From: Candidatus Fimivivens sp.
GTDB lineage: Bacteria > Patescibacteriota > Minisyncoccia > Moranbacterales > UBA1568
Reading direction: 5' to 3'
Length of the DNA stretch: 52,901 nt
NCBI GenBank assembly: GCA_035560715.1
Contig: DATMYW010000030.1
Span: 1-52,901 of the forward strand
The notes beneath the pieces are model-generated. The model saw nothing but the letters and a program-made list of their open reading frames with translations, was not told where the DNA came from and ran no database searches. Below are positions 12,915 to 52,544 of this stretch, piece after piece (the stretch's first letter is position 1; each line of letters begins with the position of its first letter). The position numbers were made by a program, and so were the translations under genes.

Positions 12915-13114
12915 AGGGTCGAAGTCATCAAGAAGGACGGGTCCTTCGCGAATAAGCGACTCACTCAGATGTCACATCGATCCGCGCACCCGGAAAGCGG
13001 GATGCGTTCCGCCCGGAACCGCGGTGAGATGCGAGGTGGGTCACGAAGATAACGAGGCCATAATATCACGTTTTCGACCCGGAATCAAGTGTCCCGAAGA
13101 ATCGGAAAAATGCC

Positions 13115-29350: not shown

Positions 29351-29486
29351 ATACCCCCCGTCCGTTTGGTTAACGAGCCACTCCCTTCATCCGACATTTT
29401 TGAAAACCGATGCTACCACGCCACTCACTCCCCGTCAACCGTTTGTACCGAATGACTTGCGGAAGCAGTGTTGCCTGCCCGCCTTT

Positions 29487-29537
29487 GGAGGGTACCTGCT
29501 CCGAAACGGTTTTTCTCGCTGCCAGGCCGGATACGTG
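29487..29537 (+). repeat. degenerate fragment of the hairpin element family (A0)
   Basis: Shares an exact 19-mer CCTGCTCCGAAACGGTTTT (plus CTC after one extra T) with copy A1, followed by GCCAGGCCGGATACGTG resembling A1 GCCAAACCGGATATGTA. Confidence 0.6.
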
Positions 29538-33137: not shown

Positions 33138-34163
33138 TTACTTCCACCCCTGATTGACGATACGGAACGAGACCTGCTCCTGCTGGACGTTCACGATCCC
33201 CTGCGGGGTCTGCTGCGGGACGACCTGCTGGGTCTTCTTGAACTCCATACGGATCTCGAACCGGTTCGATTTTTCCGCGCTTTCAATTGCTGCGATCACA
33301 TAGTCTTTCTTGTTCTCAGCGCGGAACTCGCCACACTCGGCCTCGGGACTCCACTGCCCGTGGAGAACCATCTCGTCGCGATACGACTCGTAGAGCGAGG
33401 TGAGGAGCGTCGCGAGTTCTCCCTCGGCATACGAGACTGTCTTTATGCCAAGGTCTTCCTTGGCCTCGCGCCGACCGATGACATACTGGTGAGAGTAGAG
33501 TTTCTCGGTCAGGGTATCGATGATGCCGTCGATCGCCTTCTCGTCGAGCTTGGTCTGATGGCTGCCGAGGAGTCGCTTGGCGAGCAGTCGGATAAGCTTA
33601 TACGTGCGGTTCACATTGCCGAGTGCGAGTGGATGCACCGACGGCGTGCTATCGGCAAGCTTGTTGAAGATCTTGGTCAGTTCCTCGTCGCCCTTGATGC
33701 CGACACCTTCTTTCGCAAGGTCGAAGTACGCCATCACCTCCTCGACCGAAATCGGGATCCTGGCCTGCGGGTTCTGCGGATCGGCCGGATTGAAGACGTT
33801 CGCCGTCGAAGGGTCGATCGGGGTCAGCTCGCCCATGTCCGTCATCACGATCTCATCGGCGCCGAGCGCGATCATCGTCGCGGCGCTGTGCGCCTTGTAC
33901 GGCACGAGGACCGAAAAGGTATCGCAGTATTCGCGGATCATGGAGACGAGTCGCCATGGCACCATCGTGTCCCCACCCGCGCTGAACAGGACGAGATCGA
34001 TCTTCGGCACCTTGCCGATCGTGCGGAGCTGCTCACTCATCAGAGGAATCACGTCCATCGCGATCTTGGCACTCACCGGGCCCTGCCGGTCACTCGTCAC
34101 ATACGTAATCACCTTCGACCCTCGGGCCGATTCGATTTTTTTGAAAAGTTCGCTGCGTTCCAT
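33138..34163 (-). CDS. SDH-family Clp-fold serine protease
   Basis: VITYVTSDRQG, LVLFSAGGD, VPYKAHSAATMIALGADEIVM. Start moved to ATG 34163 because the ORF extension to 34319 runs through repeat A1. Confidence 0.75.
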   Translation of the reverse strand: MERSELFKKIESARGSKVITYVTSDRQGPVSAKIAMDVIPLMSEQLRTIGKVPKIDLVLFSAGGDTMVPWRLVSMIREYCDTFSVLVPYKAHSAATMIALGADEIVMTDMGELTPIDPSTANVFNPADPQNPQARIPISVEEVMAYFDLAKEGVGIKGDEELTKIFNKLADSTPSVHPLALGNVNRTYKLIRLLAKRLLGSHQTKLDEKAIDGIIDTLTEKLYSHQYVIGRREAKEDLGIKTVSYAEGELATLLTSLYESYRDEMVLHGQWSPEAECGEFRAENKKDYVIAAIESAEKSNRFEIRMEFKKTQQVVPQQTPQGIVNVQQEQVSFRIVNQGWK

Positions 34164-34194
34164 ATTTTTGGTTCGAATGTATTTCAACACCGTC

Positions 34195-34223
34195 ATCATA
34201 CACCCGAAAAACCCTTTTGTAAA
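34195..34223 (-). promoter_or_regulatory. promoter of the protease operon
   Basis: Minus strand TTTACA, 17 nt, TATGAT. Confidence 0.55.
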
Positions 34224-34268
34224 GCCTTCAAGCATCGCTACATGTCGATTACCTCCCCCACGAAACAC

Positions 34269-34431
34269 TTTGCAGGAGCAGGGTAGTCCCTGCTCCGAAA
34301 CGGTTTTCTCCCTTGCCAAGCCGCAGCCTTGGCGAAGGCTGGTTTGCCAAACCGGATATGTAACATCGATCGTAAACCATGTGGTTCAGGGTGCCCTCCA
34401 CGGGCGGGCAGGCAATCCTGAACCTGCGAGA
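34269..34431 (+). repeat. MITE-like hairpin element, copy A1 (163 nt)
   Basis: 5' hairpin GGAGCAGGG-TAGT-CCCTGCTCC, central GCCAAGCC...GGCTGG hairpin, 3' hairpin GGTTCAGG-N26-CCTGAACC, ends CTGCGAG. Confidence 0.85.
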
Positions 34432-34474
34432 AAACTACGAGAAGTATCCCTCATCCAAGCCTTTCCCCTGACGA

Positions 34475-34503
34475 TTGACTTATTTTCAAAAAAATGTTAT
34501 TTT
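34475..34503 (+). promoter_or_regulatory. cassette 1 promoter
   Basis: Box CTCATCCAAGCCTTTCC at 34450, then TTGACT, 17 nt, TATTTT. Confidence 0.5.
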
Positions 34504-34567
34504 TTCCAGTCGGTCAGCAGATCATTTCCAACAAACAAACGAGGCAAAACGCCGAAGGATCACCAAC

Positions 34568-35182
34568 ATGAACATCTATGAAATACTCGGATTAAAACTC
34601 CCTGTTCGGAATCGTTTCTCGTATATAAAGATGAGCGGGCCAATGAAGGTACTCGCCAGATACGAGACATCCAACGCATACGGCTTCGTAGTCCAAGAAG
34701 GCGTCCAAAGAAACATCATCGACATCCGGATTCCGAAAGATCTCGTGAAAGAACCAGTGGGAACGATCGACATGATCACGGTTACCTGGGAAAAGGATCA
34801 CGCCTTCATAGCGCCGCTTCAAAATTCCGACGCAAGGGAAGCTGATTATGGCAAACCGTTCTACCTTGATGGACCCCTTCAGGGTATGGCCGTACGATGC
34901 TTCACGATGCGAAACGATCACAGCGCCCCGCATGTGGCAGTTCCGATAGGCCAGCCACTTCCTCTCCTGTCCGCTTTCGAAGACGCCGGAGATCGACTCG
35001 TACTGATCAAAATGGATGACAACGGGCACGCGATCAAGAAAATGTCTCCGCTGACGGAATACAGCACAACCCCATGGGAAGAAATTCTCCTGAATCCATC
35101 GGGGTTTCGACTCCAGGTAGACGAAAGGTACGATACCGAAAACAAGGCCTTCCGTTTTTCCGAAAAACTTTCCAAAGAATGA
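34568..35182 (+). CDS. hypothetical protein (cassette 1)
   Basis: In-frame ATG 34568 (MNIYEILG...) with GAAGGA 9 nt upstream. The ORF-track start 34475 is the TTG of the -35 box. Confidence 0.65.
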   Translation: MNIYEILGLKLPVRNRFSYIKMSGPMKVLARYETSNAYGFVVQEGVQRNIIDIRIPKDLVKEPVGTIDMITVTWEKDHAFIAPLQNSDAREADYGKPFYLDGPLQGMAVRCFTMRNDHSAPHVAVPIGQPLPLLSAFEDAGDRLVLIKMDDNGHAIKKMSPLTEYSTTPWEEILLNPSGFRLQVDERYDTENKAFRFSEKLSKE

Positions 35183-35206
35183 ATCTTCCTCGGACACACG
35201 GTTCAG

Positions 35207-35252
35207 GGACGTTCTCTCGCATGTTAAGGCGAGGAACGTCCTTTATTATTTT
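35207..35252 (+). terminator. cassette 1 terminator
   Basis: GGACGTTCTCTCGC-N8-GCGAGGAACGTCC followed by TTTATTATTTT. Confidence 0.65.
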
Positions 35253-35444
35253 CAGCGAGCAAAAAACCACATGCGCGATATTTCATTGCATGAGATTTCT
35301 CGTGTAATGTGATCCATCCGTCATCGTCCGCATGAATATGCCGCGCACATAATCGTTTGTGCGATTCATTGCGTCATTTCCAAAGAGCGGATACTCGCGA
35401 CAAAACGCGCAAACTCTCACCTCATCCAAGCCCTTTCCGAACCG

Positions 35445-35473
35445 TTGACAGGAAATTAGTTCTTTGCTATAAT
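35445..35473 (+). promoter_or_regulatory. cassette 2 promoter
   Basis: Box CTCATCCAAGCCCTTTCCGA at 35421, then TTGACA, 17 nt (GGAAATTAGTTCTTTGC), TATAAT. Confidence 0.7.
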
Positions 35474-35506
35474 ATGTCGTTATCAGTGAGTTGTTTTACA
35501 ATGGTT

Positions 35507-35552
35507 GGTCATAGCCAAAAAAAGTTCATCCGGACTCTTTCTGGCTATGACC
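35507..35552 (+). promoter_or_regulatory. long perfect hairpin in the cassette 2 leader
   Basis: GGTCATAGCCA-N24-TGGCTATGACC, no following T-run, inside the 150-nt leader. Confidence 0.5.
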
Positions 35553-35623
35553 AAGAAAAAAGGTCTTAGTTCCGCCTCGGATGAGAGGAAACACAACCGC
35601 GCGACTGAGCGCAGGAGGCAATT

Positions 35624-36334
35624 ATGTCAGACAATATAAGAGATCCGTTCTATATCTCGAGAGTCTATCCAGGCGAATTAAACGCCCTGGTAAAGCACAT
35701 GATGCAACAGATGGGAACCAATGATCCGAATGAGGCGGTGAAGGGCATCAATAGCGGTGCGTATGCCGTTACAAAGGCACTCCCGTATTCCAAAGCCGAT
35801 GGTGTGCTCGCCATCGAACTCAGGTCGGATGGAACGACTGGGCCCGAGTGGATTCGTAAATGGAGAATGCGCGGCTACAAAGTCCCTGACAGGATACAAG
35901 AGCGTCTGTTGTCGCCTTCGTTCGAACCGACAAATGGCGTTACGTATCGCGTCGTGATTGTCTCCGAATCTGCGATTCTCATAAATCTGGGTACATGGAA
36001 CTCGACCTCGTCGGAGATCGGTTTCTCGGAAATTCTTGAGGAGGCCGGCAGGCGGAATCTCTCGATGATTGAGAACGAGGAAATCCCCTTCCTTCTCATG
36101 GAACGATTCACGAAAGGCCAGTACGAAAAAATGGGGTTTAAAGACATTGTCGTTCCTACACTGATCCCGGGTCCAATACCGACGATAAATGACCAGGAAG
36201 CTCAGTCATACGCGACATATCTGGAAACCTTCTACTACTTCGGTCGATTTTCACGGATCGAGGCGCTCGAATCAGCGATCTTCCAAAGAAATAGTGCTCG
36301 CGGCTATGCGCTCATCGAACGCAGCGAGTCATGA
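35624..36334 (+). CDS. hypothetical protein (cassette 2)
   Basis: 236-aa ORF. AGGAGG lies 6 nt before the ATG. Confidence 0.7.
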   Translation: MSDNIRDPFYISRVYPGELNALVKHMMQQMGTNDPNEAVKGINSGAYAVTKALPYSKADGVLAIELRSDGTTGPEWIRKWRMRGYKVPDRIQERLLSPSFEPTNGVTYRVVIVSESAILINLGTWNSTSSEIGFSEILEEAGRRNLSMIENEEIPFLLMERFTKGQYEKMGFKDIVVPTLIPGPIPTINDQEAQSYATYLETFYYFGRFSRIEALESAIFQRNSARGYALIERSES

Positions 36335-36355
36335 TCAGGATACGATGAGACACAG

Positions 36356-36383
36356 AAAAAGGGATCTCCAACGAGGTCCCTTT
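36356..36383 (+). terminator. cassette 2 terminator
   Basis: AAAAA-GGGATC-N8-GGTCCC-TTT, then stub CTCATTTCTCATCCAAC. Confidence 0.55.
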
Positions 36384-36400
36384 CTCATTTCTCATCCAAC

Positions 36401-36545
36401 TTTTGCAGGAGCAGGGTAGTCCCTGCTCCACACAGTTGTTCTCCCTTGCCAAGCCGTAGCCGTGGCGAAGGCTGGCGTGCCAAGCCGAATTCATAATATC
36501 GATCGTAAACCGCATGGTTCAGGGTGCAACCCTGAACCTGCGAGA
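36401..36545 (+). repeat. MITE-like hairpin element, copy A2 (145 nt)
   Basis: Same three-hairpin layout. 3' hairpin GGTTCAGGGT-GCA-ACCCTGAACC. Confidence 0.85.
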
Positions 36546-36560
36546 GGATACTCCCGCTCG

Positions 36561-36589
36561 TTGACACCCCCCTCCGGACCTGGTACGCT
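36561..36589 (+). promoter_or_regulatory. cassette 3 promoter (P2 type)
   Basis: TTGACA, 17 nt, TACGCT. A TACAAT at 36605 is an alternative -10. Confidence 0.45.
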
Positions 36590-36654
36590 GCCGAGAAGTG
36601 CTTTTTACAATCCGCATCAATCACCCGAAACCCTCTTAACGCGAAGGAGGCACC

Positions 36655-37095
36655 ATGCCACAAAACCTCATGAAAATTCAGATGTACGTTCCTGAAGGGT
36701 TCTCGACGATCAAGTCCGCACTCGATCGGTCGTTCGAGAAAGCCGGGTATCGGCTCGAAATGTGTACCGCCGAGGCGAAACCGCCATCGACCGATCCAAT
36801 AACGCTCGCGGTTCGGATGATCCCCGACGATTTCGGAGCGATTGCCGCCGGCCTCGCAATCATCGTTTCAGAAGAACCGGGCGGGCGGACGAAACTGGAC
36901 TGTGGGCTCGCGATACGAAAATACGACGATAATACGCATCGGGTGAATGCCCAGTTCGGTAATTTCTCTGTTGCCACCACATCGGACGAAATCGCTGGCC
37001 ATCGCATCTATGGCGGGGCATACGTCACGAAACTTGAGAAGGATCTGGACGCACTCATCCAGCAAATCCTGCCGCGGCGCCCCGTTCGCGCGTAA
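36655..37095 (+). CDS. hypothetical protein (cassette 3)
   Basis: 146-aa ORF. AAGGAGG lies 5 nt before the ATG. Confidence 0.7.
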   Translation: MPQNLMKIQMYVPEGFSTIKSALDRSFEKAGYRLEMCTAEAKPPSTDPITLAVRMIPDDFGAIAAGLAIIVSEEPGGRTKLDCGLAIRKYDDNTHRVNAQFGNFSVATTSDEIAGHRIYGGAYVTKLEKDLDALIQQILPRRPVRA

Positions 37096-37119
37096 CGACT
37101 GAAAAAAATACCCGATTAC

Positions 37120-37152
37120 CCGGCATGCGGCCCAACGCATGTCGGTTTTTTT
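37120..37152 (+). terminator. cassette 3 terminator
   Basis: CCGGCATGCG-N6-CGCATGTCGG followed by TTTTTTT. Confidence 0.8.
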
Positions 37153-37173
37153 GCCAAAAATCGATTCCCTTCG

Positions 37174-37202
37174 TTGACGCCCCCTTCCGGACCTGGTACG
37201 CT
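37174..37202 (+). promoter_or_regulatory. cassette 4 promoter (P2 type)
   Basis: TTGACG, 17 nt, TACGCT. Near-duplicate of 36561..36589 and its leader. Confidence 0.45.
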
Positions 37203-37268
37203 GCCAAGAAGTACTTTTTACAATCCGCATCAATCACCCGAAACCTTTTCAAAACAAAGGAGCGTAAC

Positions 37269-38156
37269 ATGACCACGACCAAACCGACACCGATCCTCAT
37301 TTCCGGCCTGCCGGGAAAAATGGCTACCCTGGTAGCGCAGGCGCTCATCCGCGACAACCGCTACCTGGTCGTTCCACACGCACTCGTCGGTCTGGAAACC
37401 ACCGACCCCGAAATCTTTCTCGAGCTCCACGACAAGCTGGGGCCGATGACGCGAATACCGTTCGAAACCGTGTATGCGCCTGGCAGACCAAATTACCTCC
37501 AGGAGCTGAAGTCGCGATACCCGGGACTCATCATCGTGGACTATTCCGTCCCGTCGGCCGTGAATACGAACGCCGAGCTGTTCTGTGACGCCGGTATCCC
37601 CTTCGTCATGGGCACGACCGGCGGCGACCGCAAGGCTCTCCAACGCACCGTCGAGCGATCGGGGGTTCCGGCCGTCATCTCCCCGAACATGTCGCCGGCG
37701 ATCGTCCTCTTGCTCTCGATGTTCGAGTATGCCGCCATGACCTTCCCCGATGCGCTCAAGGACTTCTCGCTCGAGATCATCGAGAGCCACCAGGCTGGAA
37801 AGAAGGACAAGAGCGGAACCGCAAAAAAGATTGGGGAACTCTTCGGACAGCTCGGAGTCGACTATCGCGGCGAGGATTCGATCAACGCGATCAGAAACCG
37901 CATGGCACAGCTCGCCATGTGCATCCCGCCCGAATATCTCGACGGCCACGGCTGGCACACCTACCGTCTGATATCGCCGGATGGCAGCGTTATGCTCGAA
38001 TTCAGGCACAACGTCAACGGACGGCAGACCTATGTCGACGGGACGGTCCTCGCCCTCGTATTTCTCATGGAAAAGGTCCGGGAAGCCTGCCTCGGAGTGT
38101 TCACGAACGAACCGACTGATACCTACTTCACGATGATCGACGTCCTGAAAGGATGA
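37269..38156 (+). CDS. dapB: 4-hydroxy-tetrahydrodipicolinate reductase homologue (plant/long type), cassette 4
   Basis: In-frame ATG 37269 with AAGGAG upstream. N-terminal Rossmann ILISGLPGKMA, MGTTGG, catalytic-loop-like ESHQAGKKDKSGTA. Confidence 0.7.
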   Translation: MTTTKPTPILISGLPGKMATLVAQALIRDNRYLVVPHALVGLETTDPEIFLELHDKLGPMTRIPFETVYAPGRPNYLQELKSRYPGLIIVDYSVPSAVNTNAELFCDAGIPFVMGTTGGDRKALQRTVERSGVPAVISPNMSPAIVLLLSMFEYAAMTFPDALKDFSLEIIESHQAGKKDKSGTAKKIGELFGQLGVDYRGEDSINAIRNRMAQLAMCIPPEYLDGHGWHTYRLISPDGSVMLEFRHNVNGRQTYVDGTVLALVFLMEKVREACLGVFTNEPTDTYFTMIDVLKG

Positions 38157-38183
38157 CAACGCGAACCGAAACGACAACGAACG

Positions 38184-38214
38184 AAAGGGATTCCACCGAA
38201 ACGGAATCCCTTTT
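38184..38214 (+). terminator. cassette 4 terminator
   Basis: AAAGGGATTCC-N8-GGAATCCCTTTT. Confidence 0.8.
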
Positions 38215-38230
38215 CTATTTTTCCTCCAAC

Positions 38231-38419
38231 TTTTGCAGGAGCAGGGTTGTACCCTGCTCCGAAACGGTCGGTCTCCCTTGCCAAGCCGGAGCCTCGGCGA
38301 AGGCTGGCTTGCCAAGCCGCAGTCATGGCAAAGGCTGGCTTGCCAAGCCGAATATATGAAGTCGCTCGTAAACCGCGTGGTTCAGGGTGTAACCCTGAAC
38401 CTGCGAGAAACCTGCGAGA
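38231..38419 (+). repeat. MITE-like hairpin element, copy A3 (189 nt)
   Basis: Same layout. Internal 31-nt unit CTTGCCAAGCC..GGCTGG duplicated in tandem (38277..38307, 38308..38338). 11-nt AACCTGCGAGA duplicated at the 3' end. Confidence 0.85.
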
Positions 38420-38450
38420 ATTATCCCAAATCCAAGCCATTTCCGGACAG

Positions 38451-38479
38451 TTGACTGGAAAGCGATTCTTTGCTATAAT
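38451..38479 (+). promoter_or_regulatory. cassette 5 promoter (P1 type)
   Basis: TTGACT, 17 nt (GGAAAGCGATTCTTTGC), TATAAT. Confidence 0.75.
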
Positions 38480-38542
38480 ACACCGTTATAGTAGTCTTTA
38501 CACCACAAACCACCAACCAGGGCCCGGAAAACGGGGAAATCG

Positions 38543-38878
38543 ATGAAACAGATTGAAAGCCTCAAGGAATTCAAAGGGGGGAATTATTATTGTGTCATTA
38601 CTTTCGGTTGGACAGGCAGCGCCGAAGATCAGCAAACTTTCTTCGTCAGAACGGTAAAACAAACAGGGGGTCTCAGCATAACATACGATTCCGGAAAGAA
38701 GGCGGAACTTTCCCCGACGAACCTGAAAGAAGGTCTCGAATCCGGCGCCTATTACTCCTCCAGCAAGAGCGCCTTTCTTAAAGAGGTGAGATCCTTCCTC
38801 TCCAACATGAAAAGGACTCGAAAAAAGCGATCTCGAACAATACATGACTTCGAACAGTTTATTGCGACTCTTCCGTAA
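38543..38878 (+). CDS. hypothetical protein (cassette 5)
   Basis: 111-aa ORF behind the conserved leader. No signal peptide. Confidence 0.6.
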   Translation: MKQIESLKEFKGGNYYCVITFGWTGSAEDQQTFFVRTVKQTGGLSITYDSGKKAELSPTNLKEGLESGAYYSSSKSAFLKEVRSFLSNMKRTRKKRSRTIHDFEQFIATLP

Positions 38879-38916
38879 CAAGAGGAGGCTTAAAAAAGAC
38901 GGCCTTGATCGTATGC

Positions 38917-38946
38917 AAAGGAGCTCCATCCAACCGGAGCTCCTTT
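38917..38946. terminator. cassette 5 terminator
   Basis: AAAGGAGCTCC-N8-GGAGCTCCTTT. Confidence 0.8.
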
Positions 38947-38947
38947 C

Positions 38948-39007
38948 TCATTTCTCCTTCAACCCGAGCTTGTCGATTCTCGATCGGATACTGCCCGGCT
39001 GGCGCCC
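38948..39007 (-). pseudogene. fossil copy H3 of the helicase 3' end
   Basis: Minus-strand read GRQPGSIRSRIDKLGLKEK-stop versus helicase GRQPGSIRSRIEKLGLGEK-stop. Six synonymous and two non-synonymous codon differences. Confidence 0.8.
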
Positions 39008-39039
39008 GATCATCCCTCATCCAAGCCCTTTCCGGACGG

Positions 39040-39068
39040 TTGACTGGAAAGCGATTCTTTGCTATAAT
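39040..39068 (+). promoter_or_regulatory. cassette 6 promoter (P1 type)
   Basis: Box CTCATCCAAGCCCTTTCCGGA at 39016, then TTGACT, 17 nt (GGAAAGCGATTCTTTGC), TATAAT. Confidence 0.75.
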
Positions 39069-39130
39069 GCACCGTTATAGTAGTTTTTACACCACAAACC
39101 ACCAACCAGGGCCCGGCAACGGGTTTACTC

Positions 39131-39724
39131 ATGAATACACGATCCACGTTTCGCGGTTTTCTTATCGGATTCTTTCTTGTTTTTTTGGCCGCGTGCAGCC
39201 AGAAATCAAGCGAAAATCCAAGGGACATCGAGGAGCGGCTTAGGCAGGCTCCGCCGAAAACCTTCCTGATCGACGAAAAAGGGAATGTGACCAAAGTCGG
39301 CCACGTTGCCGCAGAAACGGACGAAATCACGTCCGTTAACACCGATGGGGCATTCGGCACTATGCCAATCCGGACGGCTACGGGAAGGATCGTCGAGATC
39401 GTCGTGCCCGATCACCAGAACTACGCCGCCTACGAGCGCATGTTCCCTGGCTTGCAATCACAGGACATCCTGAGAAAGGCAGGGCAAGGGGCGATCGCTC
39501 TCATGGCTGACGGTTCCGTCATGGTCATCGTCAATCCGACGTATGAGTATGGCATCGCGATGGTCTCGAAATCAATCGGAACGAGACAGACGCTCTCAAC
39601 CGATGACATCGTAGCTAAAGCGGTCAACATCGTCTCTCCGAAAACTCCAGGAAAGGCGCTCAACGGCTATGATGAGCTGTGTGCGACCTACGTCAGCGGT
39701 ACAAGATTGCGACCTCAGAAGTAA
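39131..39724 (+). CDS. lipoprotein L1 (cassette 6)
   Basis: Signal peptide MNTRSTFRGFLIGFFLVFLAAC with lipobox L-A-A-C (Cys22). Confidence 0.8.
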   Translation: MNTRSTFRGFLIGFFLVFLAACSQKSSENPRDIEERLRQAPPKTFLIDEKGNVTKVGHVAAETDEITSVNTDGAFGTMPIRTATGRIVEIVVPDHQNYAAYERMFPGLQSQDILRKAGQGAIALMADGSVMVIVNPTYEYGIAMVSKSIGTRQTLSTDDIVAKAVNIVSPKTPGKALNGYDELCATYVSGTRLRPQK

Positions 39725-39743
39725 CGAGGCCTCAACCAAAGAA

Positions 39744-39769
39744 AAAGGAGCTTCCAACGGAGCTCCTTT
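39744..39769. terminator. cassette 6 terminator
   Basis: AAAGGAGCT-N8-AGCTCCTTT. Confidence 0.75.
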
Positions 39770-39770
39770 C

Positions 39771-39827
39771 TCATTTCTCCCCCAACCCGAGCTTTTCAAT
39801 TCTCGAACGGATACTGCCCGGTTGGCG
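39771..39827 (-). pseudogene. fossil copy H2 of the helicase 3' end
   Basis: Minus-strand read RQPGSIRSRIEKLGLGEK-stop is identical to the helicase C-terminus, although 8 nucleotides differ. All eight changes are synonymous. Confidence 0.85.
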
Positions 39828-39874
39828 GACGAAAGACGGACGGACCTGATCCGACTGAACCCTTTCCGAAAGTC

Positions 39875-39903
39875 TTGACATACGGCACGAAATATACTAT
39901 CGT
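39875..39903 (+). promoter_or_regulatory. cassette 7 promoter
   Basis: TTGACA, 17 nt, TATCGT, preceded by the partial box CCCTTTCCGAA. Confidence 0.5.
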
Positions 39904-39961
39904 ATCGTGAAGCATCTTACCATCATTTTTCCCTAACCTCTGACCGAAACCGGAGACTCTC

Positions 39962-41056
39962 ATGAAACAAGCGGGACCAACCCAACCAGAAAGCGCCATC
40001 ACCGAACTCCAAAAACTGTTTGACGAAGCGTTTATCGCGTTTGAGAACCAGCCCATTACACCGGGAATAGCCAACCTCGGAGGTGCGGAAATCCCGACAC
40101 ATGTCGGAGGTATCGAAATACGGACGATTCAGCCGGGTGAAGACGGATACACGCTGGGAAATACGTATCTGACCCAGATCTGTAACCAGTTCCGGGAATG
40201 GAGTGCTGACGTACGTGAGGAATACCGGAGGCGGGGCGTGGCGCACGTCGCGATACTCCCGCTCTATATCATGCACGAATTCTTCCGGGCCACCGGAAAG
40301 ATCTCCCTACGTCCGACTGAGCGCGATATGATCATGCTCTCGAGACACTGGAAAAAACCGCTTCAGGAATCAGTGTATGATGCCATTGACACGACAGCGC
40401 ATATCATGGGCCTGGCATGTTCCATCGGATTGGCAGCGGGAGCCGGTTACTTGCTGTTCTGGCCCGGAGGACTGAAGGGAAACGTCGACTATTTCAACGC
40501 CCTTTTCCTGAACACGACCAAGGTGATCCTGACGATTGCCGTTGCCATCGGAATGATGTGGGCAACGAATCTGTTCCTCGGTTACATCGGAAAGAAGGCC
40601 GCGGTCAAACGATTCGTAGAACGGGTTTTCCGCTGGAGATTGGGACGTTTCATCCGAACGGAAAGTCGCTACGAAGTGTTTCGCACCGTTCTGGACAACA
40701 GTCGCTACTGCGACGAATCGGACGCCTATTACGAAACCATCGCGTTTCGTGATTATCCGGACGGATTGGAACGGACCCTGTTCGCCGCCGGACGGTCATA
40801 TGTCGCCGCGCATCCGGATGCCATCGGTATCGCAGGGACGTCATATGAACTGTCCATGATTGGATGGAAACAGCGTCGGCCGGAATTCGCGGAACCGACG
40901 GTATCGGGTCCATGCGTTCTCTTCTACCACGAGCGGGAACACGCGACTGACAAACGGCATTGCCCATATGGAATCGTACTCGGCACGATCGGTGAACTCT
41001 CAAAAGAAGATGCCGATATCTTCCGCGGGCTCTTGAACAATGAGCGTCTTGTCTGA
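39962..41056 (+). CDS. hypothetical two-TM membrane protein (cassette 7)
   Basis: 364-aa ORF. GGAG lies 6 nt before the ATG. Central hydrophobic helices IMGLACSIGLAAGAGYLLFW and VILTIAVAIGMMWATNLFLGYI. Confidence 0.7.
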   Translation: MKQAGPTQPESAITELQKLFDEAFIAFENQPITPGIANLGGAEIPTHVGGIEIRTIQPGEDGYTLGNTYLTQICNQFREWSADVREEYRRRGVAHVAILPLYIMHEFFRATGKISLRPTERDMIMLSRHWKKPLQESVYDAIDTTAHIMGLACSIGLAAGAGYLLFWPGGLKGNVDYFNALFLNTTKVILTIAVAIGMMWATNLFLGYIGKKAAVKRFVERVFRWRLGRFIRTESRYEVFRTVLDNSRYCDESDAYYETIAFRDYPDGLERTLFAAGRSYVAAHPDAIGIAGTSYELSMIGWKQRRPEFAEPTVSGPCVLFYHEREHATDKRHCPYGIVLGTIGELSKEDADIFRGLLNNERLV

Positions 41057-41069
41057 ACGAGACCGAACA

Positions 41070-41105
41070 AAAACCCGACGCGTGCAGCCGCGCCCGTCGG
41101 GTTTT
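41070..41105 (+). terminator. cassette 7 terminator
   Basis: AAAACCCGACG-N14-CGTCGGGTTTT. Confidence 0.85.
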
Positions 41106-41135
41106 ATTCTCCTCATCCAAGCCATTTCCGGACGG

Positions 41136-41164
41136 TTGACTGGAAAGCGTTTCTTTGCTATAAG
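41136..41164 (+). promoter_or_regulatory. cassette 8 promoter (P1 type)
   Basis: Box CTCATCCAAGCCATTTCCGGA at 41112, then TTGACT, 17 nt (GGAAAGCGTTTCTTTGC), TATAAG. Confidence 0.7.
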
Positions 41165-41224
41165 ACATCTTTATCAGTGCCTTACCATTTCAACTCAAAC
41201 AAGGTCCCGGCAACGGGTTTACTC

Positions 41225-41806
41225 ATGAATACACGATCCACGTTTCGCGGTTTTCTTATCGGCATCGCGCTCATTTTCCTCGCCGCATGCGGCCAGAAAA
41301 CCGAAACGAATCCGCCGGAGGTCGCGAGGCAAAAGGCCGAGGAGATCCGAAGCGCGACTCCGACGACCTTCGTAAGAAGTTTCGCGGATCACATCGTAAG
41401 GATCACGAACATCGACAAGGACACGTTCACCGCGATCGAGCCCGACGGCACGTTCCGAACTTACGCGATTTCGGCGGCAGCAAAAACGGTCGACGAGATC
41501 ATAAAGCCGGACGACCCGAACTACGCCGACTACGTGCATATGTTCCAAAACGAATCCGTCATCGCGGCGATACACAACGCGGGTCAGTACGCCTTCATCG
41601 TTGCCAAGGATGGGACGATCGGTCAAATAGTCAATAACCCCGCCCCCGCCGCACTCACCGCCAACGTCCGCTGGCATCAGGGAGCAATGATTGTAAAAAT
41701 GGAGATTTCCTCGATCGCCACACGACTTATCGACGTCGTTCCGACAAGTGACATTAGGTACAACACCTTTGCCGGAAAGTACTGCCGCGAAGAAAAGGCG
41801 AAGTGA
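41225..41806 (+). CDS. lipoprotein L2 (cassette 8)
   Basis: In-frame ATG 41225. MNTRSTFRGFLIGIALIFLAAC lipobox (Cys22). The first 38 nt of the CDS are identical to L1. Confidence 0.8.
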   Translation: MNTRSTFRGFLIGIALIFLAACGQKTETNPPEVARQKAEEIRSATPTTFVRSFADHIVRITNIDKDTFTAIEPDGTFRTYAISAAAKTVDEIIKPDDPNYADYVHMFQNESVIAAIHNAGQYAFIVAKDGTIGQIVNNPAPAALTANVRWHQGAMIVKMEISSIATRLIDVVPTSDIRYNTFAGKYCREEKAK

Positions 41807-41824
41807 TTGTCGGCGCGCAACAAA

Positions 41825-41850
41825 AAAGGAGCTTCCAACGGAGCTCCTTT
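41825..41850. terminator. cassette 8 terminator
   Basis: AAAGGAGCT-N8-AGCTCCTTT. Confidence 0.75.
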
Positions 41851-41911
41851 CTCATTTCTCCCCCAACCCGAGCTTCTCGATCCGCGAACGGATGCTGCCA
41901 GGCTGACGGCC
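41839..41911. repeat. 73-bp perfect direct repeat, left copy (contains pseudo 3' end H1, 41852..41911)
   Basis: Identical base for base to 42730..42802 (offset 891). Covers half the terminator plus the stop and last 19 codons of the helicase. Confidence 0.9.
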
Positions 41912-41990
41912 AAAGGGAAATATCGTCCCTCCTCCAAGCCATTTTCAAACCATTTCACAAGGAAATGATAATGTCCCCATTTTCGAACCA

Positions 41991-42019
41991 TTGACGAGGT
42001 AGCTATTTCCTGCTATAAT
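41991..42019 (+). promoter_or_regulatory. cassette 9 promoter
   Basis: TTGACG, 17 nt, TATAAT. Confidence 0.7.
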
Positions 42020-42078
42020 AGACCGTCGCAGTAGTCTTACCAATAACTCTCAACCAGGGCCTGGAAACGGGTTTTATC

Positions 42079-42693
42079 ATGCACACATATTCCACGCTTC
42101 GCCACATCCTCGTCGGATTCTTTCTCGTTTTCCTCGCCGCATGCACGGAGATGACCAATCCGCAGGATGTCGCAACGGAATTCCAGAATAAACTAAAGGA
42201 GGCCCCGATCGGATCCTATGTGATCACCAATTACGGAACATGCCTAAGAATAGAGTCGCGATCTTCCGACCGTGATAGCCTGTATGTCTTTACCGGACGC
42301 GGCTCGATGAGTAAACTCGGGATCACTGCTCTTTCCTACGAGTCCAAAAAACTACTCCTCCCAGGGGAAGAAGGGTATGCGGCTCAGGACAGGAGTTTCC
42401 GCGATATTACTCAAGAATCCCGGATATTAAATGCGCCAAAAGGCACCCTCCTTCTCCGGAAGAATATCTCCAACGGAAGAACGGAAGTCGGTATGATAAT
42501 GGCATCCACCGGCTGCCCCGGTGTCGTGAATGTCTGTTGGAAAAATGGCTCGCAGGCAGAATCTGAACAAGTATTCACGCTTACCAAAACGATCACCTCT
42601 ATCATCACTCCCTCCGAACAGGACTATAAAACGTACATGCTCTTGTTCAATAATGGGAAAGTCTTCCATCCGGAAGGATTCAGAAAAGGCTGA
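42079..42693 (+). CDS. lipoprotein L3 (cassette 9)
   Basis: MHTYSTLRHILVGFFLVFLAAC lipobox (Cys22), behind the conserved leader. Confidence 0.8.
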   Translation: MHTYSTLRHILVGFFLVFLAACTEMTNPQDVATEFQNKLKEAPIGSYVITNYGTCLRIESRSSDRDSLYVFTGRGSMSKLGITALSYESKKLLLPGEEGYAAQDRSFRDITQESRILNAPKGTLLLRKNISNGRTEVGMIMASTGCPGVVNVCWKNGSQAESEQVFTLTKTITSIITPSEQDYKTYMLLFNNGKVFHPEGFRKG

Positions 42694-42713
42694 AATCGAC
42701 GAGGTATGAAAAT

Positions 42714-42741
42714 AGGAGCTCCATCCAATCGGAGCTCCTTT
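42714..42741. terminator. bidirectional terminator shared by L3 and the helicase
   Basis: AGGAGCTCC-N8-GGAGCTCCT followed by TT. Confidence 0.75.
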
Positions 42742-42802
42742 CTCATTTCTCCCCCAACCCGAGCTTCTCGATCCGCGAACGGATGCTGCCAGGCTGACGG
42801 CC
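42730..42802. repeat. 73-bp perfect direct repeat, right copy (functional helicase 3' end)
   Basis: See 41839..41911. Confidence 0.9.
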
Positions 42803-44383
42803 GAGGGTGTGCGAGATCGATTTGATATCGGCCCCTCCCTGGACAAGCCTTCGGAGCCACTTGTCCTCGTCTTCCTTCCACGGCGTATACGCCTTCGGGA
42901 ATGTCTTCCGTATCTCGTCATAATGACCGGGGCCGGCGGTTTTGGGAGTCGGACTCCCGCTTGGGAGTCGGACTCCCTTTTTCACTTCTTTTCTCCCCTT
43001 CGTCTTCTGCTTACCCATTTTTCCCTTTCCCCCTTGCCACGTAGGAGCCTTGGCGGAGGAGGGCTGCACCCCGCAGATGATCAAAAACCCTTCCTCATCT
43101 TTCCGGATCTCGTCTTCGCTCCGTGAGCCGTACGATGTCGCGGCCGACTCGCTCGCCTCGCGAAAGAGGAGGTCGCGCTCGCGCACCGCCGGGTGCGTGA
43201 GGAACGCGCGGTCGGAGAGTCCGACGAGCGAAAGCCCCGCGAGGGTGCGCACGCGGGAGAGCGCCACATATCCCTGCCCGTATTCGAACACGCGAGACAG
43301 GTCCATGACCGCCGCATCGAGCGAGGTTCCCTGACTCTTGTGGATCGTCATCGCCCACGCGAGCCGCAACGGGATCTGCCGGATCCGCGCCACGATCTCC
43401 TCCCCTTCCTCGACCGCCCATTCGGCAGGAGCGACCGTCACCGTGTCACCGTCGCGGGTGCGGACAATCGGGAATTTCTTGGTCGCATCGAACCCGATGA
43501 CCGTGCCGAGCGTCCCGTTCACGTATCCTTCCTCGGCATTGTTCTTGGTGAACATGACCGAGGCGCCCTCCTTGAGTTCGAGCTTCTCGGGCGAAAGGCA
43601 CCCGCGGATGAGCGAGGCGAGCGGTCCCTCGGGTCCCCGCGTCGCCATACGGAAGACGACTGCCTTCCCGGGAAGCCGGTCGAGCGCGGCCGCATTGATC
43701 CCGTCCACGTCGGTATTGTGCGAGAAAAGCACCGGCAGGTCCTCGTCCGGCACATCATCGGGTCCCAGGAGGCACTTGCGAACGAGTTCGAGGTGCGTCT
43801 CGCCGAATTCGTCACGGCGGATCGCGGAGAGTATCTCGAGGAATGCCGGGTCTTCCTGACGGTGCTGCTCATGCAGATAGCAGACGACCGGATCGAGCGC
43901 GGCCCACGCGGACGACTCGAACGCGAACTGGGCCGCCCCATCGCGCGACACCGGCGGCAGCTGGAAGAAGTCGCCGACGAGCACGACCTGGATCCCGCCA
44001 AAGGGAAGCGTCGTTCCCTTGGCGTGCCGGCACACCCGCTCCACAAGCGAAAGTGTCCGCGCATCGAGCATCGAGATCTCGTCGATTACGAGGACGTTCG
44101 TCTCGCGAATCCGACGCAGGGCCGCACGGTTCTTCACGAGACGGCGGAATCCCTCGTCGTCGAGCTCGCGGTTCGCACCGATCCCGCTCCACGAGTGGAT
44201 GGTCATCCCGTGGATATGCGTGGCCGCGATTCCGGTCGAGGCCGTCACCGCGTACGCGATACCCCGGGAACGAAGGTATTCCGCATATCGGTTCACGACA
44301 TGCGTCTTGCCGGCACCCGCCTCCCCCGTGAGGAAAACGTTCGCGCCGGTCTTGAGTATGGATAGCGCCTGGTCCTGGGTCAT
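42743..44383 (-). CDS. PIF1/RecD-like ATP-dependent DNA helicase with a C-terminal Myb/HTH-like tail
   Basis: Walker A GEAGAGKTH, VLVIDEISM, VLVGDFFQLPPV, TIHKSQG. Tail YTPWKEDEDKWL...LGRQPGSIRSRIEKLGL. Confidence 0.88.
   Translation of the reverse strand: MTQDQALSILKTGANVFLTGEAGAGKTHVVNRYAEYLRSRGIAYAVTASTGIAATHIHGMTIHSWSGIGANRELDDEGFRRLVKNRAALRRIRETNVLVIDEISMLDARTLSLVERVCRHAKGTTLPFGGIQVVLVGDFFQLPPVSRDGAAQFAFESSAWAALDPVVCYLHEQHRQEDPAFLEILSAIRRDEFGETHLELVRKCLLGPDDVPDEDLPVLFSHNTDVDGINAAALDRLPGKAVVFRMATRGPEGPLASLIRGCLSPEKLELKEGASVMFTKNNAEEGYVNGTLGTVIGFDATKKFPIVRTRDGDTVTVAPAEWAVEEGEEIVARIRQIPLRLAWAMTIHKSQGTSLDAAVMDLSRVFEYGQGYVALSRVRTLAGLSLVGLSDRAFLTHPAVRERDLLFREASESAATSYGSRSEDEIRKDEEGFLIICGVQPSSAKAPTWQGGKGKMGKQKTKGRKEVKKGVRLPSGSPTPKTAGPGHYDEIRKTFPKAYTPWKEDEDKWLRRLVQGGADIKSISHTLGRQPGSIRSRIEKLGLGEK
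42942..42977. repeat. tandem 17-mers, each holding a 15-nt palindrome, inside the helicase CDS
   Basis: TTGGGAGTCGGACTCCC at 42942..42958 and 42961..42977. Core GGGAGTCGGACT also forms the half-site of the 32-nt intergenic palindromes. Confidence 0.85.
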
Positions 44384-45484: not shown

Positions 45485-48400
45485 CTACTCGGCGATTTCT
45501 TCCGCGACATCGGCAACCGGGGCCGCGACGGGCTCGCGGAATCCGGTACCGGCCGGGATGAGACGCCCGATGATGACGTTCTCCTTGAGGCCGCGGAGGC
45601 GGTCCTCCTTGCCGGCGACCGACGCGTTGATAAGCACCCGCGCCGTTTCCATGAAGGATGCGGCCGAGAGAAAGGACTCCGTCGAGAGCGCCACCTTGGT
45701 GATACCGAGGACGAGCTGTTCGCCCTGGGCGGTCGCCTTGCCGGCCGCCGCGACCTCCTGGTTCGACTCGCCGAACTGCGCGGTCTCGACGATGTCGCCC
45801 GGCAGGAGCTCGGTCGCACCCGGATCCGTGATGCGGATGCGGGAAAGCATCTGGCGGATGATCACCTCGATGTGCTTGTCGTTGATACCTTCGCCCTGGC
45901 TCGCGTAGATCTCTTCGATCTCGCGGATGATGTAGCGATGCAGCGCCTCCTTGCCCGAGATCTCGTAGAGTTTCTTGAGATCGAGGTGCCCCTCGGAGAG
46001 GACCGTCCCCTCACCCACGAGGTCGCCTTCCTTCACGAGTACCGAGAGGTTCGCCGGGACGGAGAACTCGCGATCTTCCTTGTCCACGGTGGTGATGACG
46101 ATCTTGACCGTCTTCTCGCCGTCCTTCGAAACTGACAACACGGTGCCGGCGACATCGGAGATGACGCCCTCGGACTTCGGTGTGCGGGCCTCGAAGATCT
46201 CCTCAACGCGCGGAAGACCCTGCGTGATGTCGGACCCGGCGATACCGCCGATGTGGAACGTACGCATGGTGAGCTGGGTACCCGGCTCGCCGATCGCCTG
46301 TGCGGCGACGACTCCGACTGAGGCGCCGATCTCGACCATCGCGTTGCGACCGAGGTCGACCCCGTAGCACTTGCGGCAGATGCCGCGGTTGGATTTGCAG
46401 GACACGAGCGAACGGATCCTTACTTTCTGGATGCCGACCTTCTCGATCTCGGCCGCCTTCGGTTTCGAGATGAGTTCGTTCTTCTTCACGATGACCTCGC
46501 CCGTATCGGGATGCTTGATCGTCTCGAGCGCGACGCGACCGCGGACCCGTCCCGCGAAGCTCATGCCGATCGATTCGGAATCCTCACGGTAGAGGAACGC
46601 GCCATCAGTATCCTTGCAGTCCTCCTCACGGACGATGATATCCTGCGACACGTCGACCAGTCGACGGGTGAGGTAACCGGCGGTCGCGGTGCGGAGCGCG
46701 GTATCCGCCATACCCTTTCGCGCGCCGTGCGTGGAGATGAAGTACTCGAGAACATTGAACCCTTCCTTGAACGAGCTCTTGACCGGGAGCTCGATGGTCT
46801 CGCCGGTCGCTCCGGCCATAAGTCCCTTCATTCCGGTCATCTGGACGACGACGGATTCGGAACCGCGGGCTTTGGAGTAGACCATGGAGTAGACCGGGCC
46901 CTCCTTGTCGAGAGACGAGCGGACCGCATCGGTAATCTTGTTCTTCGCCTCGTTCCAGATCTCGATGACGCGATTCTTGCGCTCCTCGTTGGTGAGAAAG
47001 CCCATCTCGTACTGTCCCTTCACCTCGACGACCTTGGTCTCGGCATCAGCCATAATCGTCTCCTTCTCGACCGGGACCTTGAGATCGTCCATACCCCAGC
47101 TGATGCCGGAGCGGGAGACGTAACGGAACCCGAGGTCCTTGAGCTTGTCGGCGAACTTCGCAGTCTCTTCCTGACCGACTTCCTCGAGCATGCGAGCCAT
47201 GACGCCGTTGAGACTCTTCTTCACGAACTCTTCGTTCATGAAGCGGAGGTGATCCGGCAAGATGTCGTTGAAGAGCACTCGGCCGGCGGACGTCTCGATG
47301 AGCTCGCCTTTCCAAAGAAGCTTGATCTTCGCATTCACGTCGATCAATCCGCTCTGATACGCGAAGATGACCTCGTCCATGTTCGAGAACGCTTTCCCCT
47401 CGCCCTTCACGCCACTCTTGAGGTGCGTCAGATAGTACGCGCCGAGCACCATGTCGAGCGTCGCGGACACGATCGGATCGCCGGACGCCGGCTTCAGAAG
47501 GTTCTTCGCGGAAAGCATCATGTTCGCGCTCTCCCAACGGGCCTGATCGGTAAGCGGTACGTGAACCGCCATCTGGTCGCCGTCGAAGTCCGCGTTGAAC
47601 GCGGAACACACCATCGGATGGAGGCGGATGGCCTTGCCCTCGATCAGGACCGGCTGAAACGCCTGGATGGAGAGACGGTGCAGGGTCGGGGCGCGGTTCA
47701 GGAGCACGTAGTGGTGCTCGATGATCTGGTCGAGGATCTCATATGCCTCTTCCGCCTCGGCGTCGACCATGCGGCCGGCGGTGCGGACATTGTGCGCGTC
47801 CTCACGTTCGATGAGCTTCTGGATGATGAACGGCTTGAAAAGTTCGAGTGCCATCTTTTTCGGAAGACCGCACTGGTGCAGCTTGAGCTTCGGACCGACG
47901 ACGATCACGGAGCGTCCCGAATAATCGACGCGCTTTCCAAGCAGGTTCTGACGGAACCGACCCTGCTTCCCTTTGAGCGCGTCGGCGAGCGAACGGAGCG
48001 GTCGGCGCTGCCCGGTAGAGGCGGCGGCGCTGGCCTGACCGCGGCGGGCACCGTTGTCGAAGAGCGCGTCCACCGCTTCCTGCAGCATGCGCTTCTCATT
48101 TCTCGTGATGACTTCCGGCGCGCCGATAGACAAGAGCTTCTTCAACCGGTTGTTGCGGTTGATGATACGACGATAGAGATCGTTGAGGTCGGACGTGGCG
48201 AACCGTCCGCCATCGAGGGCGACCATCGGACGCAGATCCGGCGGGATGACCGGGATGACGGTCGGGAGCATCCACTCGAGCCGCAATTGCGCCTTCTGGA
48301 AGCCCTGGAAGACCTTGAGCCGCTGGAGATGCTTCTTGGGATCGGACATCTCGCCCGCCTCAAGCTCGGCCCGGAGCGACGTGATCATCGCCGGGATATC

Positions 48401-49087: not shown

Positions 49088-49115
49088 AGGCGTGTGGCGT
49101 TAGAAGTCGTCAAGG

Positions 49116-52544
<3,429 letters not shown>

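Follow-up and report, generated by a model that had tools for sequence, protein, structure and literature searches.

Introduction

Repetitive extragenic palindromic (REP) doublets forming hairpins (REPINs) and bacterial interspersed mosaic elements (BIMEs) are known, together with REP-associated tyrosine transposases (RAYTs, TnpA-REP), from Pseudomonas fluorescens SBW25 and E. coli (PMC3116915, PMC3337134, PMC3479197). Classical REPs require a GTAG tag (PMC3479197, PMC3733652), and dimers with two differing stems are known from P. aeruginosa (PMC3733652). Furthermore, RAYT-like genes termed TIRYTs are flanked by terminal inverted repeats without GTAG and have moderately abundant families of miniatures (Di Nocera et al. 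2013, PMC3733652). A modular build of another kind is that of the pneumococcal BOX elements, boxA-boxB(n)-boxC (PMC3049150). Here we describe a short repeated element, called A, with three copies (A1 to A3) in contig DATMYW010000030.1 of Candidatus Fimivivens sp.; the whole stretch of 52,901 nucleotides is referred to as the window. The closest known kinds are REPINs and BIMEs with their RAYTs and the RAYT relatives flanked by terminal inverted repeats (PMC3337134, PMC3479197, PMC3733652, PMC5581495).

We consider it likely that A1 to A3 are non-autonomous, REPIN-like miniatures, also akin to MITEs (miniature transposable elements with inverted repeats). They would consist of the two ends of a RAYT (HUH/Y1) transposon, in which the gene has been replaced by zero to three copies of a 31-nt unit, and would be mobilised in trans. 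An earlier note on this DNA, made from the sequence alone, had proposed a MITE-like element with a cognate transposase of the IS200/IS605 or REP-associated tyrosine type. The similarity to RAYT-flanking ends, the deleted RAYT copies and the dispersal of the element bear this out.

Results

Structure of the A copies

A1 (34269-34431), A2 (36401-36545) and A3 (38231-38419) are three copies of one element, all on the + strand, intergenic, about 150 to 190 nt in size and without coding capacity. The three copies in the same orientation were found as the earlier note had described them, with pairwise identities over aligned columns of 88 to 90% (127/143 for A1-A2, 134/152 for A1-A3 and 131/145 for A2-A3). 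The family was searched by exact-pattern scans with either end hairpin and with a covariance model, R1, built from 16 copies; A1, A2 and A3 scored 139, 142.6 and 140.6 bits, respectively. To these three copies a fourth, degenerate half copy has to be added, which lies on the + strand outside the array of genes that holds A1 to A3, at about 29457-29537 (R1 23.7 bits, E 0.035; also seen in local alignment to A1-A3). It keeps one end hairpin, with an inverted loop insert, followed by GAAACGGTTTTTCTCGC-TGCCAGGCCGGATA.

Each copy starts with (T)TTGCA-GGAGCAGGG-loop-CCCTGCTCC, i.e. a hairpin of 9-10 bp, GGAGCAGGG(T)/(A)CCCTGCTCC, designated AG-type, which is also the one kept by the half copy. A conserved GAAACGG..TTCTCCC, the 31-nt unit or units with a partial unit, CGATCGTAAACC... 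and the TT-type hairpin GGTTCAGGGT/ACCCTGAACC with TGCGAG follow in this order; the terminus of the copies reads GGTTCAGGG(T)-loop-(A)CCCTGAACC-TGCGAG. This layout of hairpins beside a starting TTGCA and a final TGCGAG had been noticed before and matches the sequence, and searches with the hairpin and unit motifs gave 0 matches in 100 shuffles. The AG-type hairpins (+ strand) are located at 34275-34296 in A1 (GGAGCAGGG-TAGT-CCCTGCTCC, with the tag TTGCA in front), at 36408-36429 in A2 (repeat and motif search plus fold) and at 38238-38260 in A3 (GGAGCAGGGT-TGT-ACCCTGCTCC). The TT-type hairpins, on the same strand, occupy 34383-34424 in A1, where a loop insert, GCCCTCCACGGGCGGGCAGGCA, is nested and TGCGAG follows, 36516-36538 in A2 (GGTTCAGGGT-GCA-ACCCTGAACC, again with TGCGAG after it) and 38379-38401 in A3 (motif search plus fold).

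The 31-nt internal unit, CTTGCCAAGCCG.AG.C.TGGCRAAGGCTGG, is present once in A1 (34312-34342, +) and in A2 (36445-36475, +) and twice in A3 (38277-38338, +), followed by a partial unit in each copy; the tandem duplication described for A3 is real. The same region had been read as an internal hairpin. The module exists, but its predicted pairing in single-sequence folds was inconsistent between the copies, and a hairpin is thus only partly supported.

The ends of A flank RAYT genes in relatives

The TT-type hairpin of A2 together with TGC (26 nt) was identical in 26/26 positions to the 3' end of a RAYT element in the related locus L033. There, nucleotides 624-1127 encode a protein of 167 amino acids between a 5' hairpin and the A2-like 3' end, and this is the sole gene of the element. 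Likewise, the AG-type hairpin of A3 with its tag (GCAGG onward, 26 nt) was identical, again 26/26, to a hairpin that precedes the L131 RAYT gene by 29 nt. A-type hairpins flank a RAYT gene in inverted arrangement at L033, L003/L130, L131, L134, L135 and L210-L212. In the full-length elements of L211 and L212 a TT-type hairpin is located on the 5' side of the gene and an AG-type hairpin with TGC on its 3' side, which is the hetero-typic pair of A. L135 has the TTCTCCC motif and a loop insert of the A1 type.

Deleted forms were seen beside complete ones. A copy of about 200 nt next to the full gene of L033 keeps the first ~10 and the last ~25 codons between the same ends and is, to judge by its sequence, a miniature caught in the making. 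In L210, miniatures of about 100 nt with the same ends lie on both sides of the RAYT gene. Because the ends of A match hairpins that flank RAYT genes and because deleted RAYT copies lie beside full ones, we favor the view that A is a non-autonomous derivative of such a transposon.

The flanked HUH/Y1 genes encode proteins of 167-172 amino acids. The two that were scanned against the NCBIfam model NF047646 'REP-associated tyrosine transposase', those of L033 and L003, scored 82.4 and 85.8 at a cut-off of 80. The L003 protein (L003:2306-2812, from a metagenome-assembled genome (MAG) of Moraniibacteriota) is a homologue with 55% identity to the L033 RAYT, and relatives have been named 'REP element-mobilizing transposase RayT' by JGI. 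The motifs NHIH (HUH motif) and YIxxNPV (tyrosine motif) were invariant in 7/7 members. Two RAYT genes of the A-end family adjoin reverse-transcriptase genes (L212 1-819; contig of P0008, RVT_1 and bAvd), and one of these pairs has a bAvd-like accessory gene. Such a pairing is typical of diversity-generating retroelements; it may be a coincidence.

Around 80 RAYT genes the nearest hairpins were found to share one geometry, with GC(N)-GG-stem-T-TGY-A-stem-CC upstream and the reverse complement, ending CC-(N)GC, downstream. One element end has GCAGG, stem and TGY loop, the other has stem, RCA loop and CCTGC. The stems themselves vary widely, and in 37 distinct RAYT-flanking and A hairpins compensatory changes were seen in 9/10 stem pairs. 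What is conserved at these ends is apparently the structure, not the sequence.

The A-family copies fitted the ends of L211 and L212 best in minus orientation (64-65/80 vs 55-56 for L009; 57-59 vs 51 for A3). This better fit to the hetero-typic full-length ends weakly suggests that the minus strand of the window is the transposase-sense strand. A GTAAAC motif was considered as a marker of orientation and rejected, since it is part of an extended inverted repeat.

Terminal inverted repeats, folding and hairpin variants

The terminal inverted repeat matched at 15-19/27 positions without gaps and at 18/26 with one gap, in agreement with the 18 of 27 given in the earlier note. It runs on for about 11 nt inside each hairpin, with 22-25/40 ungapped matches in A3, L009 and L035b; the value of only 18-19/40 in A1 and A2 arises because a loop difference shifts the register. 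The end tag is TTGCA / TGCGA in A1 to A3 and GC(N) in the wider family. The stem differences between the ends, AG/CT versus TT/AA, are compensatory as had been claimed, and both terminal hairpins were present in the minimum-free-energy and centroid DNA folds of A1 to A3 with z-scores of -3.1 to -6.5. In the consensus fold the two end hairpins stay separate, and no more than a terminal helix of 5 bp is added; one long hairpin made of the whole doublet was not formed in minimum-free-energy, centroid or consensus folds. Within the A family the AG-type hairpin showed a compensatory change at alignment columns 15/21 (12 G-C, 4 U-A), while the invariance of the 3' hairpin in the family alignment is an artefact of its use as a search pattern.

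Two hairpin variants recur. A 26-nt loop insertion had been attributed to A1. The GGTTCAGG hairpin there indeed has a 26-nt loop; the insert itself comprises 19 nt and is shared with L053, L135 and, inverted, the half copy. These four copies carry an insert of about 20 nt, rich in GC, in an end-hairpin loop (GCCC.CC....GGC.GGCAGGCA; window 34393-34414, window 29470-29492 in inverted form, L053 ~13020-13045 and L135 ~2020-2045). In L135 the insert is carried by a full-length RAYT element, at its right end. The insert is a heritable, recurrent hairpin variant, not private to A1. The second variant is the 11-nt terminal duplication of A3 (AACCTGCGAGA twice), which was present as described and is not peculiar to A3, as a degenerate version follows A1 (in repeat D8). 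Such tandem partial duplications of half a stem and the tag were seen at the ends of miniatures and of full-length RAYT elements in several lineages (window 38398-38419 and 34421-34448; L033 545-580; L035 10075-10190; L132, L138, L141 and L160 beside RAYT genes). They may have been left behind by the reaction that cuts and joins, or by slippage at the hairpin.

Distribution in related genomes

Pattern scans and R1 detected at least 7 copies on 6 contigs of the Candidatus Moraniibacteriota MAG ELA282 and 4 copies on 2 contigs of the Candidatus Moraniibacteriota MAG ELA496 (locus L053), both of which are incomplete. The copies were found on both strands and in unrelated contexts. They contain 0-3 internal units and form tandem as well as partial clusters, one of the tandem kind in L035. 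Thus there are further copies, as asked for in the earlier note, and these are dispersed and of both orientations. Strong R1 matches in 1.31 Mb of sequence surrounding 80 helicase loci of Patescibacteria were confined to the window, L053 and L054, i.e. the window and two MAGs, for which reason we regard the subfamily as restricted to a small clade. The sediment metagenome run X1, which contains the window in almost identical form and is its likely source, yielded two further contigs with diverged parts of the element at matching depths (22.8 and 22.1 vs 24-26.5). The counts so far are modest, with three copies and one half copy in 52.9 kb, and none of the MAG counts is in the hundreds. The 3' hairpin with its tag was also found in many metagenome contigs of other lineages, and RAYT elements as such occur in Moraniibacteriota as well as in many other bacteria.

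Occupancy, flanks and local recombination

A1 to A3 reside in an array of single-gene units (c1 onward) between a gene for an SDH-type protease and a helicase gene. Occupancy differs between relatives, as the earlier note had suggested checking. The A1 site is empty in ELA496 (L053) and in W9_075 (L050), where homology ends at ...ACTT|TGCAGG, and ELA496 has a copy on the opposite side of the protease gene. Behind the dapB-like unit c4, W9_075 has a complete helicase remnant, where the window has a remnant stub and A3. In the strain of run X3 from another study, which is ~96% identical, a single hybrid copy with the 5' part of A1 joined to the middle of A2 takes the place of A1-c1-c2-A2; the contig is without the 2.1 kb between A1 and A2. 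The strain is also without c3, which lies between two promoter repeats (P2). The A repeats break assemblies; in the source sample, Logan contigs stop at these repeats.

Neither a direct repeat nor a target-site duplication was seen at the flanks of ~14 copies, which fits single-strand Y1 transposition; in this point the suggestion of the earlier note to look for such duplications had a negative outcome. The flank beside the AG-type end is T-rich (TT in 11/14). On the + strand the one beside the TT-type end mostly reads G(A/G), equal to YTC on the - strand. A fixed target word was not found at the flanks of these ~14 copies.

The helicase-protease cassette array

The window is a stretch of bacterial chromosome with rpoB and rpoC at 45485-52544 (-) and genes for RecA, SSB, EF-P, FtsK and ComEC. 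The PIF1-like helicase shares 74-79% identity with the helicases of five Candidatus Moraniibacteriota MAGs, and the organism is evidently a relative of this group. The PIF1/RecD-like helicase gene is located at 42743-44383 (-; Pfam PF05970, E 4.9e-33), and remnants of its 3' end mark joints of the array. The gene for the SDH-type ClpP-like protease at 33138-34163 (-; Pfam PF01972) is the fixed far border according to synteny and empty-site alignment, and A1 lies at this end, 105 nt upstream of the start of the protease gene. Between the two genes (34164-42742) there are nine single-gene units on the + strand, every one of them equipped with a promoter module and a terminator.

Three joints (38914-39010, 39737-39833 and 41818-41914) contain, besides a copy of the helicase stop region, ~45-60 nt of the 3' coding end; the true end of the gene is at 42739-42815. 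A2 follows a 20-nt stub of the stop region (36381-36400, +; TTTCTCATTTCTCATCCAAC), 18/20 identical to 42739-42758, and A3 a more diverged stub (38210-38230, +; repeat D9). The observation that the element takes the slot after CCAAC which other joints fill with the helicase remnant was thus confirmed. A2 and A3 lie exactly between a terminator and the next promoter. The identity of the remnants in the window drops with the distance from the helicase (64/64, 52/60, 51/60 and 18/20 for the stub), and those of W9_075 decay likewise (100%, 85%, 71%). Because of this decay new units seem to enter next to the helicase, each with a fresh 3' end. The number of units in the interval is 0 in ELA282, 1 in ELA496, 2-3 in W9_075 and 9 in the window. 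No integrase or recombinase was found in the window (Pfam, 40 open reading frames) or beside the array in relatives. Judged from these remnants, the interval looks like a site where cassettes accrete step by step at the 3' end of the helicase gene, no recombinase gene being nearby.

Several other features of the array were recorded. A promoter and leader module with a perfect TTGACA-17-TATAAT, P1, occurs at 35417-35488, 38423-38494, 39012-39083 and 41108-41179, and a second one, P2, at 36558-36649 and 37171-37262; the copies of P1 and P2 are 72-93% identical and stand in front of unrelated genes. The loss of a unit between the P2 copies in the X3 strain is expected from recombination between them. 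Three units encode paralogous lipoproteins (39131-39724, 41225-41806 and 42079-42693) with a shared signal peptide and lipobox (...FLAAC) and diverged mature parts, and homologues with 23-55% identity are present in the same interval of L050, L052 and L055. The cassette gene at 37269-38156 is DapB-like (dihydrodipicolinate reductase fold); L050 has a 70%-identical cassette, and a related gene is the first unit in the X3 strain. An inverted repeat with 21-nt arms, 90% complementary, and an 8-nt loop (35505-35554) is located in the leader between P1 and the unit at 35624-36334. The stretch of ~170 nt from the terminator of the first unit to the next P1 (35250-35416) has no obvious open reading frame and no counterpart at other joints. 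PADLOC did not assign any of the nine cassette proteins to a defence system, and the helicase gave only generic helicase-domain matches.

Discussion

Comparison with known systems

A resembles REPINs and BIMEs in being non-coding and intergenic with a variable spacer, and in having hairpins that also flank a Y1/HUH gene passing the NCBIfam RAYT model. There are clear differences. In place of GTAG, A has the tag GC(N) / (N)GC, immediately next to a GG...CC stem on its outer side, the doublet forms separate hairpins and not one long hairpin, and its ends are hetero-typic. The spacer of 60-130 nt contains a tandem 31-nt unit, there are a few to ~ten copies per MAG so far and not hundreds, and the RAYT gene often has stacked miniatures and partial ends beside it. 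Moreover, the host belongs to a lineage of the Patescibacteria (candidate phyla radiation, CPR). With the TIRYTs A shares RAYT-like genes with terminal inverted repeats unrelated to GTAG REPs and moderately abundant miniatures. In contrast to them, as compared by description, each inverted repeat of A is itself a near-perfect hairpin of 9-11 bp.

IS200/IS605 elements have ends that do not form inverted repeats, and guide tetranucleotides determine where they are cleaved; for IS608 a strand bias is known. A and its relatives have in common with this group a Y1/HUH transposase, hairpin ends, the lack of a target duplication and a presumed single-strand transposition. The A copies share one orientation, and if minus were the sense strand they would lie on the strand rich in G, in keeping with what is expected of the lagging-strand template. 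Unlike IS200/IS605 ends, those of A are genuine inverted repeats down to the tags and to the loops, which read TGY at one end and RCA at the opposite one, and the RAYT protein has the YIxxNPV signature and scores below the Pfam Y1_Tnp cut-off. Like BOX, A consists of end modules with complementary termini around a variable number of short tandem units with independent folding, whereby the length varies and the ends stay undisturbed. This is an analogy only: there is no relation in sequence, and BOX makes target duplications, is linked to another type of insertion sequence and occurs in another host phylum.

Origin of A1 to A3

If A is a miniature of a RAYT transposon, a RAYT supplied in trans would bind the hairpins on single-stranded DNA, cut beside them and rejoin the strands in the manner of IS200/IS605-type 'peel and paste', which would leave no target duplication. 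The cognate RAYT gene would be bounded by GCAGGTTCAGGGT... and ...GGAGCAGGGT-ACA-ACCCTGCTCC-TGC.

Several results weigh against this origin. The window itself has neither a RAYT nor another transposase (tblastn with the L033 RAYT; Pfam on 40 open reading frames), a RAYT was not found in runs X1-X3 at >=80% nucleotide likeness to L134/L135, a search insensitive to diverged genes, and ELA282 and ELA496 are not among the 80 RAYT loci listed. A transposase of the kind that the earlier note had suggested looking for elsewhere was found in relatives, where the same end hairpins flank RAYT genes, and not in the window or, at this sensitivity, in the source metagenome; no cognate RAYT is tied to any genome with this exact subfamily. 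The Pfam Y1_Tnp score of the protein is below the cut-off (19.7 vs 23), and PDB 4er8 matches it only at E 0.36. The canonical GTAG tag of classical REPs is absent from the ends of A. The hairpins for the covariation count were chosen as perfect stems, so that the figure of 99% paired is circular and the diversity of the stems alone is informative. An excision or insertion junction was not seen in X1/X2, for which assembled contigs only were used, and these drop rare variants. Finally, A1 and A3 share the right flank (repeat D8) and A2 and A3 the left flank (repeat D9). The local copies are therefore not independent insertions, and together with the X3 hybrid the shared flanks imply that the copies in this locus behave as substrates of homologous recombination. 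Probably the window copies were multiplied or reshuffled by homologous recombination or segmental duplication in the array and did not arise by three separate insertions. They would now serve as portable homology for gain and loss of units.

We regard it as unlikely that A is a domesticated, immobile REP-like structural element kept by the host at the joints as an insulator, a stabiliser of mRNA 3' ends or a protein-binding site. The exact position of A2 and A3 between terminator and promoter, the stable hairpins and the lack of a transposase in the window would suit such a function, and classical REPs and BIMEs have secondary roles of this kind (PMC3479197, PMC3733652). Yet A is missing from other joints of this array, relatives have the same units without A, and the length varies freely via the unit number. 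In addition, A2 and A3 are located downstream of hairpins resembling intrinsic terminators, and therefore little transcript should reach them. A secondary host role in insulation or transcript stabilisation is compatible with the proposed origin from a RAYT transposon.

That A is a site for site-specific recombination, analogous to an integron attC, by which single-gene cassettes are inserted, is very improbable. A is an imperfect inverted repeat at joints of an array of promoter-proximal single-gene units, where it fills the same slot as the helicase 3' remnant; its two ends could pair as a bulged stem with a 5-bp terminal helix, and the X3 variant breaks inside A. On the other hand, no integrase or recombinase was found in the window (Pfam, 40 open reading frames) or next to the array in relatives, boxes of the type RYYYAAC/GTTRRRY (the R and L boxes) are missing at the ends of A, each cassette brings a promoter of its own, and A is absent from most joints. 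The same element is found far from arrays, in tandem clusters and flanking RAYT genes, and plain homologous recombination between two copies with 89% identity would yield just such a joint as that of X3. A genuine integron attC had been considered since the joints end in YYYYAAC and was rejected in view of the missing GTTRRRY partner, the missing integrase and the occurrence of A outside arrays.

Slightly less probable still is the reading of A as the gene of a structured small RNA or as a cis-regulatory RNA, with the hairpins as its helices. The strong folding (z -3 to -6.5), a consensus of two hairpins with a 5-bp closing helix and some compensatory change in the AG-type hairpin within the A family are in its favor. 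In contrast, Rfam 15 at gathering score returned tRNA only for the whole window and at E<=1 no match in 34100-38600. A promoter is present neither inside nor directly upstream of A, consensus promoters being downstream; 0-3 internal units and large loop insertions are tolerated, both orientations relative to neighbour genes as well as tandem and partial clusters occur, and the ends are common to transposase genes.

The least credible reading, a classical MITE whose terminal inverted repeats are recognised as double-stranded DNA by a DDE transposase, would agree with inverted repeats of ~26-40 nt, small size and missing coding capacity but not with the absence of target-site duplications at any of ~14 copies, with the finding of only Y1/HUH RAYT genes between such ends or with stems that co-vary to keep hairpins unneeded for double-strand recognition; of the earlier label 'MITE-like' the non-autonomous miniature is supported and a classical DDE MITE is not.

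A in the cassette array, and its significance

As selfish DNA, A is of an ordinary kind. More curious is the cassette array around it, a stack of single genes that is unusually variable and has A at joints. A speculative and on balance doubtful proposal is that the helicase-protease interval is an integrase-less cassette-accretion site in a CPR bacterium, with RAYT-derived A elements as part of the machinery. Small circles consisting of a promoter, one gene, a terminator and ~60 nt of helicase 3' end would recombine in at the helicase 3' end. Every entry would restore the helicase gene and leave the older remnant behind, and A would be portable homology for excision and exchange of units. Alternatively, paired A ends might let a RAYT mobilise the genes between copies, e.g. 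A2-c3-c4-A3.

Patescibacteria genomes are small and otherwise poor in repeats. REP/RAYT miniatures in CPR bacteria were not reported in the literature we searched, the coverage of which was incomplete. Taken together, the data on A indicate that RAYT-type elements in Patescibacteria spawn miniatures with a modular core of variable length. In a hypervariable locus the A repeats are homology for gene gain and loss, and their use as markers of strains is conceivable. Should the ends prove to be RAYT substrates, the family, small and well defined, would be a convenient system for the study of RAYT specificity, with hetero-typic ends, no GTAG and an abundant natural covariation of stems.

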